DNA of 63,944 bases, counting the filler, from Collodictyon triciliatum (lineage: Eukaryota): assembly GCA_043381765.1 (NCBI GenBank). It is 20 parts of 20 records of this genome, joined end to end, with 100 filler letters (N's around TTAATTAATTAA, not from the genome) between each part and the next. Parts side by side here need not be neighbours in the genome. Positions count along the whole stretch, not along the records: positions 23,195 to 26,403 come from JBHJMP010007643.1; 19 more parts are not named here. One strand, written 5' to 3'. Each line of letters opens with the position of its first letter. Position 1 is the first letter of the stretch. The position numbers were made by a program, and so were the translations under genes. Positions 23,095 through 59,545 of this stretch are shown here, piece after piece. The notes below the pieces were generated by a model. The model was not told the origin of the DNA. It saw only the letters and a program-made list of their open reading frames with translations, and did not search any database.

Positions 23095-23399
23095 NNNNNN
23101 NNNNNNNNNNNNNNNNNNNNNNNNNNNNNNNNNNNNNNTTAATTAATTAANNNNNNNNNNNNNNNNNNNNNNNNNNNNNNNNNNNNNNNNNNNNTTTTTC
23201 TCTCTTTTTCTCTCTTTTTTCTCTCTTTTTTCTCTCTTTTTTCTCTCTTTTTTCTCTCTTTTTTCTCTCTTTTTTCTCTCTTTTTTCTCTCTTTTTCTCT
23301 TGGGAGTCACTCGAGGACAAAAACAAAAGCAAAAAGCGAGTTGCAGAAATTAAAAAGTGGATAAAAAAAAAACATACACCTTCCTCTTAAAAAAAAAAA

Positions 23400-23524
23400 C
23401 AGACTGTTGGATCTCATCTGACAGCCTTCATCACTACACAATCTTTGCGAAAAAAAAAAGCTGTGAGACCTTGGATACTTGCGGACCAGGTTAACCAGTC
23501 GAAAGATTGGTATACCCCTTCTAG
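23400..23524 (+). ncRNA. Orphan copy of the Fanzor 3' module: candidate omegaRNA scaffold with Helitron-like 3' terminus
   Basis: Colinear with 59178-59298 (CAGCCTTCA.CAC.ACACAA.CTTTG.GAAAAA..TGAGACCTTGGATACTTGCG.ACCAGGTT). Ends in hairpin ACCAGTC-GAAA-GATTGGT (23494-23511), a 9-nt spacer, CTAG (23521-23524) and then T. Confidence 0.7.
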
Positions 23525-24085
23525 TCAAATAAAAACAACGAACCGGAGAACAAACAAACAAAAAAATCAATTGAAAGCCGTTCACAAACGATCCATCCCA
23601 ACGCCTGTCGTTTATTCAACCGGCCGTAAAAGAATGGCACGACTTTGAATACGTCACATCGCAGGCATTGAGGGAAACCTGTCCATGAAGCACCTTTGAG
23701 ATGGGCGTGTCCTTGCATGCCTCATGTTCTTGTTTATGCGCGTGAGCCACGCCTCAAAGTGCCCGCTCAGACCCCGACTCTTGTCATCGACTCGTTTCAG
23801 TCCGCAGTCCGCACCATAACATTACCTTTTAGTTACCCTCTTGCTTCCTTCTTGCTTCTTTCTTGCTTCTTTCTTATTTCCTCCTTATTTCCTCCTTATT
23901 TCCTCCTTATTTCCTTCTTATTTCCTTCTTATTTCCTTCTTATTTCCTTCTTATTTCCTTCTTATTTCCTTCTTGCTTCCTTGCTTCCTTCTTGCTTCCT
24001 TCTTGTTTCCTCTAAACCCAAACAAATCGAAAAAGAAAGAAAAGAGAAAAGAAGCACCCCAAGAACCGTCATTTTCAGCCCGTGA

Positions 24086-56247: not shown

Positions 56248-56321
<74 letters not shown>

Positions 56322-56759
56322 GATGTTGCTGTTGTTGTATTTTTCCTTATCTTTCTTTTTTCTTTTGTTTTTTTCTCCTTTTTTTCATTTTCCTTTTCTT
56401 CTCTTTTTCTTTTCCTCTGTCGTTTCCTTTCCTTTCTTTTCGGTCTCATTCAGCCTGTAAATGGATAATCATCATTACAAAGGTTGTGACGAACTTGGTT
56501 TTATCCCTTTCAGGACACTGCACTTTCTATACAACGAAAGTGTACCCATATATAATGCATTTTATTGCACAGACAACCATCGAATTAAATCTGGATTGAC
56601 AAGAACAGGAGCTTTGATAAATCCAAGAAGCAACCTGAAAAATATAATAGTATAGTTAGTATATATAATAAGGTTAAAAATACTAAATAATCTCATTTAT
56701 TCATATAATCAATTTATATTTTATTTTTCATTATGTAATCCGGCCACCAAGTAGCGTCC

Positions 56760-59228
56760 ATGCAAACGATGGCTAGCGAACCAAAGCCAACANNNNNNNN
56801 NNNNNNNNNNNNNNNNNNNNNNNNNNNNNNNNNNNNNNNNNNNNNNNNNNNNNNNNNNNNNNNNNNNNNNNNNNNNNNNNNNNNNNNNNNNNNNNNNNNN
56901 NNNNNNNNNNNNNNNNNNNNNNNNNNNNNNNNNNNNNNNNNNNNNNNNNNNNNNNNNNNNNNNNNNNNNNNNNNNNNNNNNNNNNNNNNNNNNNNNNNNN
57001 NNNNNNNNNNNNNNNNNNNNNNNNNNNNNNNNNNNNNNNNNNNNNNNNNNNNNNNNNNNNNNNNNNNNNNNNNNNNNNNNNNNNNNNNNNNNNNNNNNNN
57101 NNNNNNNNNNNNNNNNNNNNNNNNNNNNNNNNNNNNNNNNNNNNNNNNNNNNNNNNNNNNNNNNNNNNNNNNNNNNNNNNNNNNNNNNNNNNNNNNNNNN
57201 NNNNNNNNNNNNNNNNNNNNNNNNNNNNNNNNNNNNNNNNNNNNNNNNNNNNNNNNNNNNNNNNNNNNNNNNNNNNNNNNNNNNNNNNNNNNNNNNNNNN
57301 NNNNNNNNNNNNNNNNNNNNNNNNNNNNNNNTCTAAAGTCGATTGTAAAGAATGCAGATGACTATGATAAAATCAAGGCACCGTTTTATTGTGTCATAAT
57401 TCGGTTACCGACACTTGTCTGTTTGCAAGATGTTACATATTGAAATCACAACAACTCTCAACAATTGATGAAATGTTTTTTTCGCACGCTTTAAAGACAA
57501 TCGGAATAGTTTCAAAAGATAGACCCACAAAATGAAAGCATCCAGAAATGAGAGAAGACATGATGACATTTTATCTCTACGATTTTCGATTTCCTTTGTC
57601 TCGAGAAGAACGCTTTCCGTTGGTTGGACTGTCTCATGTATTACCGTACTTGGAGAAGCAAATGTTAACTTATCATAATAACATAAGGAACATTTTTTAA
57701 AGAGGTTTCTGCGCTTTATAAATCAAACAGTTCCTGAAGATGAGAATATTACTGAAGCTATTAAAAAATGCAGAGCTATGGAAAAAAAAAAGCCATCTTC
57801 AAGAATCTCGAAATACCAAAAACCACAAAGATGGACTGTAACGCATTTGAATCGTATCATCCCAGCGATATTGTAAAAGGTGTCGGATATGACGCCAAAG
57901 TCAATCCAAAGAAGTACATTCCATGTCTGATTTACATAAATGGCATTTTTGGGGCATTCTAGCCAAACTGCTTCAACCATTCTCTATAAGAACTACCAAT
58001 ATACGAAGTCATATTACTCTAGATACCGCATGTTTGATATATCTATTAGTACCAACTGGAAAAACATCATTAATGAAGAATACATCAGGATGCTAAGAGA
58101 CCATATGGGATAAGTTCTTTGAAATGAAGAAGAGGGTCATTCATCAAAGAGACTACAATTTTATATACATGATACAAACAGACGGCTTGGCGGTGTCATT
58201 ATTGTTTGAAAAGAAAGGTATTTCAAATTCAAAATCCAAATATAACCAAAAACCCCAAGAATGTGTTTATACAGATGAACTTTCCGAAGAGCATTTATCT
58301 TCATTAGCGACAAAAAAAAAAAAAAAATAGTTGGAGTGGACGCAGGCAAGTTTAATTTGGTTTACATGGTGGATGAGACAGGTAAGAAATTACGTTACAC
58401 GGCACACCAAAGAAGACATGATAGCAAATCTCTTAAAAATCACAAAATGCTCTTGCGCGAGAAAAAAGAAAAATACAATTCTTCACGGATATGCATGACA
58501 AACAGGTTTACAAAGTGCTGTTTCTTTTGGTCTCATGGCTTTTGAAGAGAATCAGCAGTTTGAGGCATCAAGAGTATCTTTAATCGATTTAGAGATAGAA
58601 CTGAGTAAATATAATTCATGTACGGTCGATTATGAAAAATTTCGAAAATATGTATCTATGAAGTCAAGATACCAGATAGAATTATCCACATTTTATGAAC
58701 AAGTAGCTTTTCAAAAGATGAGATGGAGACAATATGTTAATACAAAAAGAAGTGAACCATTGTTAATGGACCGAATCGAAAAGACATTTGGCAAGGATGT
58801 TGTACTGGCGTATGGAGACTGGAGCAGAAAATGTCCGATGAAACATTTTATGATATCAATCGGAGGACAATGCATCATTTTTGAATCGAATAAAGGAAAA
58901 AAAAAAAATGATATCAATCGGAAGAGGGTTACGAAAAAAAAACTATCCAAACGTTTTGAAACAGTGAGTGTATATGAATTTAGAACTTCCAAGTTGTGTT
59001 ACAACTGCGAAAAAGAACTGGATTATATGACACTGAAAGGAAATACAAAAAAAAAGTGCATAGATATCTCATATTTAAAGAATGAAATCGGTCAGAAAGC
59101 AAACTGCATTCTTGACAAAGGACTTTAACAGCGCTTATAATATACTCAACAAAGTTCTTTCAATCCTTCAAAATATGCAGGTTGTTGGGTCTTTCCTGGC
59201 AGCCTTCACCACCACACAACCTTTGTGA
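56760..59228 (+). pseudogene. Fanzor1 (eukaryotic TnpB/Cas12-related RNA-guided endonuclease), disrupted
   Basis: Across frameshifts: LKSIVK..; YLEKQMLT.HNNI.EHFLKRFLRFIN; YDAKVNPKKYIPCLIYIN; KLLQPFSIRTTNI.SHITLDT; YNFIYMIQTDGLAVSLLF; RuvC-I IVGVDAG (D at 58339); LAYGDWS; RuvC-II VYEFRTSKLCYNC (E at 58976); RuvC-III KDFNSAYNIL (D at 59121). No introns. Part of the N-terminal region is hidden by the N gap at 56793-57331. Confidence 0.9.
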
Positions 59229-59298
59229 AAAAAGTGTTGAGACCTTGGATACTTGCGCACCAGGTTTAATCAATCTTTCGACAGTATATTCCTCCTTG
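59178..59298 (+). ncRNA. Candidate Fanzor omegaRNA scaffold / element right end
   Basis: Overlaps and follows the end of the Fanzor ORF. Conserved with 23400-23524 up to CTTG|T (CTAG|T there), after which the flanks are unrelated. Contains stem-loops CACA-ACCTT-TGTG and ACCTTGG..CCAGGT. Confidence 0.7.
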
Positions 59299-59545
59299 TA
59301 TATCCATAGCAATCCGCCAGAAAGACACCGCACCGATCGGAGCACAAAAGAGATCCAATAATTTTGACAGGCGCCGATGGAAAAGCTGCCAATATCACCC
59401 GAAAAGGCATCACGATGATTTCACCGAAAATTCCCCCGCCTTTCGNNNNNNNNNNNNNNNNNNNNNNNNNNNNNNNNNNNNNNNNNNNNTTAATTAATTA
59501 ANNNNNNNNNNNNNNNNNNNNNNNNNNNNNNNNNNNNNNNNNNNN

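Follow-up and report, generated by a model that had tools for sequence, protein, structure and literature searches.

Canonical Helitron1 elements, in the passages of PMC3627910 devoted to them, begin with 5'-TC, end with CTRR-3' and carry one subterminal hairpin; the same passages list PGv-1 and ESv-1 as TA-duplicating elements. For Fanzor nucleases, portions of Saito 2023 (PMC10432273) report 134 ghost loci with working scaffolds and raise the idea of guides acting in trans, and Jiang 2023 (PMC10530073) describes, in the relevant section, 20 extra fRNA copies in Chlamydomonas beside Helitron2-borne Fanzors. Both Fanzor guide loci lacking the nuclease gene and the concept of a guide repertoire acting in trans have already been published. 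Fanzor1 scaffolds are described as varied (Xu 2024, PMC11423790) and as closed by a helix in which bases of the target take part (PMC10711439), and an overlap of the omegaRNA with coding sequence has been reported for GtFz1 too. Craig 2023 (PMC10288648) proposes, as excerpted, that cutting by Fanzor together with an HUH enzyme gives rise to target duplications. We recognised no paper on the Fanzor family described below, which supplements could nevertheless list.

The DNA analysed here (the window) is a stretch of 63,944 nt from Collodictyon triciliatum (assembly GCA_043381765.1). It is made of contigs of ~3.2 kb chained by N linkers with a TTAATTAATTAA core, recurring every ~3.3 kb; because these linkers join unrelated contigs, distances across them are meaningless. 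One segment had been proposed, from sequence alone, to be a stand-alone omegaRNA locus with its own guide. We consider it quite probable instead that this orphan module is a right end of a multi-copy Fanzor1 transposon, truncated on its left and decayed; it likely encoded the omegaRNA scaffold of that element and has probably become a fossil without function.

The orphan right end and its source element

The orphan lies on contig C7643, 200 nt from the contig start, as the sequence-only reading had correctly placed it, and occupies positions 23375..23524 of the plus strand, to which the features of the module given below also belong. It comprises the last ~26 codons of a Fanzor1 element followed by ~70 nt of non-coding sequence; the module proper consists of ~55 nt of coding sequence and the same non-coding portion. 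Stem A (23401..23427) is situated inside the last codons and has 11 pairs in the family, one of which is broken in the orphan. Stem B with its inner hairpin (23428..23466) follows, with three pairs broken and an expanded A-run in the orphan; the stop codon of the family falls in this region, where the orphan reads CGA. A predicted closing helix has its 5' strand at 23477..23481 (ACTAG in the family; ACTTG, a mismatch, in the orphan) and its 3' strand at the element end, CTAG plus the first flank base T (23521..23525). The subterminal hairpin with a GAAA loop and 7 pairs (ACCAGTC-GAAA-GATTGGT, 23494..23511), the 9-nt spacer and the CTAG/T junction are all present as originally noticed. The right flank (23525..23540) begins with a possible target duplication; were the scaffold transcribed, this flank would act as its guide.

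Of the peptide KWIKKKHTPS, formerly read as a possible C-terminal remnant, HTPS is indeed the in-frame end of the Fanzor ORF, as supported by the C-terminus of the closest intact protein, P0001 (KIPHTKLFKKQAVG), and KWIKKK derives from the flank and an A-run. The orphan's substitutions are real, because a 151-nt contig from an independent DNA sequencing run spans 23372-23522 without a changed letter (0 substitutions, two homopolymer gaps). An Rfam scan of 23200-23700 gave 0 matches at E 1, and a scan for bacterial promoters and terminators, with models not apt for a eukaryote, found nothing. The AXDND1 label attached to the neighbouring gene found no Pfam support in the two exon-like frames searched. 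Elsewhere in the window, positions 46344-49277 hold a 977-aa open frame with cysteine-rich repeats of the Ephrin_rec_like/TNFR type.

A longer relative of the orphan is located on another contig in the window (56290..59298, plus strand), where it forms a decayed Fanzor1 pseudogene, disrupted by stop codons and frameshifts and also containing an N gap and a short nested insert. Its Fanzor1 motifs (QTDG, GVDAG, RTSKLCYNC and KDFNS) survive in decayed form and in different frames, and its Fanzor fragment matches P0001 at 55% identity (E 3e-50); a Pfam search with this fragment returned nothing. The resemblance between the two copies, from which the omegaRNA proposal had started, is borne out over 101 nt (23392-23492 with 59170-59266; 78% identity, E 3e-18 within the window) and includes the near-identical word first pointed out. 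It fades over the last 35 nt, which barely align because the hairpin of the longer copy (59262-59285) has its loop inverted to TTTC and is decayed. The longer copy ends in CTTG/T (59295-59299), not in the CTAG/T that both copies had been thought to share, so the boundary is not readable from this pair.

The nested insert (58872-58925) is very short, ends in GAATCGAATAAAGG plus an A-run and has duplications of ~15 nt at its sides. With further occurrences at 6433, 12973, 16271, 36943 and 38805, the window holds six GAATCGAATAAAGG inserts of this kind, and 17 of 116 element copies contain one as well; they resemble the 3' tail that heavy truncation would leave of a retroelement.

Assignment of the encoded protein draws on P0001, which matches three Fanzor1 proteins of solved structure, GtFz1, PpFz1 and SpuFz1 (from G. 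theta, P. parasitica and S. punctatus), at E 2e-28, 3e-24 and 4e-23, respectively. It carries all of the TDG, RuvC-I DPG, TS-x-x-C zinc finger and RD motifs, as defined in the pertinent parts of PMC3627910 and PMC10711439; in Pfam, it yields a weak TNB match alone. Fanzor1 proteins of giant viruses are the next closest, at 43-47% identity to P0001. Judged by protein similarity and motif content, the element's gene is a Fanzor1.

Family size, ends and insertion

The sequence-only reading had treated the orphan as a lone second copy, an impression dispelled by a genome search with the orphan, which yielded at least 264 candidate right ends; all 40 of those scored were matching. An exact 14-mer of the module occurs 182 times in the genome (0 for a control), and DNA of the Fanzor gene lies upstream in 26 of 29 other loci from the orphan search. 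Eighty copies were retrieved by means of the 14-mer, these being the first 80 new ones among 100 listed of the 182. Across this set the CTAG boundary proposed earlier is sharp and shared, with C, T, A and G at 79, 85, 85 and 82%, respectively, followed by T in 81%, then A in 60%, and then by unrelated A-rich flank.

Full-length copies measure 3.4-3.7 kb and combine one Fanzor1 gene with the fixed CTAG/T right end and with left ends reading TTTG(C/G)... or TTTC... ahead of a GTTT array. No terminal inverted repeat of 12 nt or more was listed end to end in three copies (decayed repeats of 8-11 nt would escape such a comparison), and the family ends show neither the inverted repeats nor the TA duplication of Mariner-type cut-and-paste elements. 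A retrotransposed origin was set aside, because CTAG is the exact end of the copies and no poly(A) tail follows it.

The family is rich in internal deletions, nested inserts and expanded microsatellites. Eight of the 80 copies cover <300 nt of a long copy, two of these being cut by a contig end or gap. Some (L060, L071 and L114) are short left-truncated copies resembling the orphan; a 554-aa frame near L060, considered as a possible Fanzor, proved to be an unrelated host gene. Three others (L061, L076 and L081, on C469, C1085 and C1253) are minis of ~215-220 nt in which the left end is joined to the last ~65 nt. Part of stem B recurs as a subterminal word close to the left end, and it is through this repeated word that the deletions in the minis are joined; L076 shows a duplication of the 12-of-13 type. 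As candidates for ghosts, these minis surpass the orphan. Several copies have identical breakpoints of internal deletion (L143/L349, L152/L350 and L169/L351; L047 and L055), which argues that deletion derivatives multiplied as non-autonomous subfamilies.

Target duplications of 10-16 nt in part of the family are probable, although not settled, from comparison of flanks. A first test of 22 copies with left ends gave p 0.0001, and among 22 curated copies with full left ends, seven score high, compared with 6.9% of mismatched pairs (permutation p 0.0006). Small new sets of 7, 11 and 4 copies show no such signal (p 0.29, 0.38 and 0.33), automatic anchoring of left ends gave nothing significant, with many anchors wrong, and at the BLAST-defined junctions of 55 copies, many of which are microsatellites, N gaps or nested inserts, duplications match the null. 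The left junction itself is biased in composition, with A at positions -5, -3, -2 and -1 in 19, 20, 15 and 17 of 22 copies. Inspection by eye showed an A preceding the duplication, as an A/T target would predict, in 8 of 12 cases, no more than A-rich flanks give.

At the orphan, the candidate left duplication is a 13-nt, A-rich segment at the truncation junction (23362..23374), partly overlapping the element's own A-run and identical to 23525-23537 at 11 of 13 positions; 1 of 115 other flanks matches as well at the exact junction, which was picked after the match had been seen. This match bears on whether the orphan arrived truncated, or is instead the remainder of a longer copy that subsequently lost its upstream part to a deletion or had it displaced by another insertion, the 13-nt match then being due to chance. 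We regard the latter as unlikely. It would accord with the rearrangements common elsewhere in the family, with the presence of A-rich 10-of-12 matches, irrespective of position, in 8 of 116 flanks, and with the CT-rich repeat in which contig C7643 begins 200 nt upstream, which resembles a CT array inside the element. The 88 nt that separate this repeat from the module are, however, unique in the genome search, and the rarity of equally good matches at the exact junction also speaks against it. The preferred reading, arrival as a truncated copy, would involve an insertion anchored at the right end and halted after 150 nt, leaving the 13-nt duplication, and carried out by a putative enzyme, probably a rolling-circle-type transposase acting in trans.

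The right end had also been called a textbook Helitron 3' end. The description fits that end itself, and fails for the left end and the probable target duplications, which do not suit canonical Helitrons. The family is not a canonical Helitron, because its left ends read TTTG, inverted repeats were not seen and some copies probably have duplications of 10-16 nt. A stricter version, in which the module is a canonical Helitron1 terminus, its hairpin serving as a DNA replication terminator only and the module having no RNA role, seems to us very unlikely. The hairpin 9 nt before CTAG/T is what it would predict, RepHel genes are present in the genome, and the loop tolerates inversion; against these points stand the TTTG (not TC) left ends, the probable duplications, and the lack of end similarity in 10 Helitron-bearing stretches, several of which are cut by contig ends. 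Stems A and B and the closing helix, moreover, have counterparts in giant-virus Fanzor elements with inverted-repeat ends. A search for a Y1 transposase found none, nor was a transposase with the same ends as the family found. One RepHel gene (L131/L135, on C6377) is truncated by the contig end, with an open frame of 1194 aa, and possibly belongs to a recent Helitron with ends unrelated to the Fanzor family.

The loop inversion seen in the window recurs across the family. By rule, GAAA is inverted to TTTC in 22 of the 80 copies, one of them a false call; a pattern search cannot tell the two loop forms apart, as reverse-complementing either yields the other. Copies with TTTC are unclustered on the tree, where 12 of them need 12 changes, at least four forced by strong branches, and L128 holds both forms side by side. 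Template switching is known for four-base loops (PMC8794818, in the section concerned), and repeated template switching or recombination among copies could be the source of these inversions.

A putative guide-RNA scaffold in a decaying family

The module of the family was most probably the omegaRNA scaffold of an active ancestral element, a reading that rests on its position, on the predicted fold of fresh copies and on pairing across lineages. By position, a structured right-end block overlaps the last codons and is followed by variable flank, a feature of omegaRNAs. The fold predicted for three fresh copies (z -6.5, -3.6 and -3.3) comprises stem A, stem B and, around the GAAA hairpin, a closing helix in which ACUAG is predicted to pair with CUAG plus the flank U. 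This helix is part of the minimum-energy fold of 38 of 105 copies; ACTAG is combined with CTAGT in 47 of 107 copies, and ACTGG with CTAGT in seven. Relatives from giant viruses and metagenomes can be aligned to the module (MAFFT) across stem B and at the word that precedes the helix. At the helix site, these pair TTTAC with a GTAAA end, 24 of 40 rows being fully paired and one (L273) showing a double change; 10 of the 16 rows not fully paired are motif-finder errors (wrong upstream word in 7, off register in 3). These right ends (L170-L328) also show strong stem covariation, and would make a good covariance-model set.

In the ancestor, transcription would have continued past the right end. The RNA would have folded into stems A and B and the GAAA hairpin, the scaffold being closed by pairing of ACTAG with CTAG and the first target T, and the ~15 flank bases beyond would have acted as guide.

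The family as a whole nonetheless looks dead, as judged by a star-like tree, branches of ~9%, a neutral ratio of non-synonymous to synonymous changes, and the failure to find an intact gene or covariation. The tree, built from those 82 of 116 copies with a continuous gene body, has a median end branch of 0.092; the ratio is 3.71, with 3.30 expected from the mutation spectrum. The longest Fanzor frame among 87 copies is 253 aa, and no intact gene was found in 68 scored loci of 1130 protein candidates, stops being present in every long match; an intact gene could be missed, given that fraction scored and an assembly fragmented into 14,576 contigs. Among 57 pattern-picked copies the module has accumulated 0.108 changes per site versus 0.075 in the gene body, and is the less diverged of the two in nine, although loop inversion inflates the module figure. 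Covariation among stems, which the omegaRNA proposal had led one to expect, equals that of shuffled alignments on 108 copies (the 116 minus seven short or disrupted and one duplicate): 0.103 versus 0.102, with 175 of 500 shuffles as high, and all five measures used fall within the shuffles (175-277 of 500 as high). Double changes in stems number 27, with 26.8 expected. Single changes keep a pair in 39% of cases as opposed to 29% expected, and nonsense changes are fewer than expected (309 observed, 455 expected); these two deviations may reflect some selection, probably among source elements.

The orphan has fared worse than most of its relatives. It carries 18 differences in 120 columns (median 12; 92 of 108 copies have fewer) and 6 of 44 pairs broken (median 4), and its fold scores a z of about -1.2 (-1.0 to -1.4), with 82 of 109 copies folding better. 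Its ACTTG breaks the predicted closing helix. The claim of an omegaRNA scaffold therefore divides in two: it is upheld, as likely, for the module of the active ancestor, and does not extend to this copy as a working guide. That the orphan might be a live ghost locus, supplying a trans guide to a Fanzor encoded elsewhere, is in our estimation extremely improbable. Ghost loci with working scaffolds are described in S. punctatus (PMC10432273, in part), and the orphan keeps the terminal hairpin, CTAG/T and one pair-preserving double change in stem A, its allele being the same in the independent DNA run. These points are outweighed by its decay beyond that of most copies, a fold like that of shuffled sequence, the closing-helix mismatch, the missing left end and the failure to see an intact gene among the loci scored. 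Its flank shows no excess of genome-wide near matches (29 versus 23 for a control), and no contig covers the orphan in the other three sequencing runs, one of them RNA; the latter counts as weak evidence and as no test of expression, since metatranscriptome contigs cannot show RNA ends such as the extension of 14-15 nt past the element end expected of a Fanzor-bound omegaRNA. On the fossil interpretation that we prefer, the orphan would have drifted neutrally since insertion together with the rest of the family.

Comparison of closing helices admits a more far-reaching scenario, possible in our view but doubtful, in which Fanzor1 switched carrier between an inverted-repeat transposon, as in its giant-virus relatives, and a repeat-less element of rolling-circle type, rewiring all five closing-helix pairs (TTTAC/GTAAA versus ACTAG/CTAGT) to the new end, with hybrid insertion, a guide library and repeated loop flips as further components. 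Insertion would then have joined the CTAG end to T; another break, perhaps the work of Fanzor itself, would have followed an ATAAA-like word at a distance of 10-16 nt and given the target duplications, and truncated copies such as the orphan, together with the 215-220-nt minis, would have served as a guide library for as long as the family lived. Both lineages appear, from their aligned sequences, to pair at the helix site with different letters, in keeping with the closure of Fanzor1 scaffolds described in PMC10711439.

Relation to described elements

Canonical Helitron1 elements and the family have in common the CTAG end, the hairpin 9 nt upstream and the T that comes next; they differ in that the family's left end is not TC, some of its copies probably have duplications and no RepHel partner was found among 10 Helitron-bearing stretches. 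As the corresponding passages of PMC3627910 describe them, CRe-1, CRe-2 and CRe-3 of Chlamydomonas reinhardtii resemble the family: they are Fanzor1-only, with no terminal inverted repeats, are often truncated at the 5' side or deleted internally while the 3' end stays intact, possess a subterminal hairpin, and have target duplications of variable length (7-19 bp) in part of their copies. Unlike them, the family has yielded no Helitron sharing its ends and no visible asymmetric inverted repeats; at the left junction its probable duplications terminate with a word resembling ATAAA, its copies need no introns, and none of those examined has an intact gene.

The orphan itself is best compared with the Spu-1 ghosts of S. 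punctatus as set out in the relevant part of PMC10432273, which likewise consist of a right-end scaffold without a nuclease gene, followed by variable flank, and have ~70-75 nt between stop codon and end. A ghost retains its two inverted repeats around a conserved body of 550 nt, whereas the orphan has one decayed end; the ghosts occur beside 19 full-length genes and work in assays, whereas the orphan has no known intact partner. The hallmarks of this type (both ends, a strongly conserved scaffold and an intact Fanzor in the genome) were not found for the orphan, which as a single locus, a decayed transposon end, matters little.

Giant-virus Fanzor1 elements (L170-L328) share with the family the order of stems and the position of the internal word that pairs with the end. 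They differ in having terminal inverted repeats of ~30 bp ending in GGTG/TA, absent from the family, and in pairing TTTAC with GTAAA where the family pairs ACTAG with CTAGT. The family provides a second example, of modest value, of Fanzor elements with a rolling-circle-like end and, probably, variable target duplications. It bears on the proposal, still open, that Fanzor cutting causes such duplications (PMC10288648, as excerpted), and represents a natural case of co-adaptation between scaffold and element end, of the kind proposed in the part of PMC10711439 that treats it.
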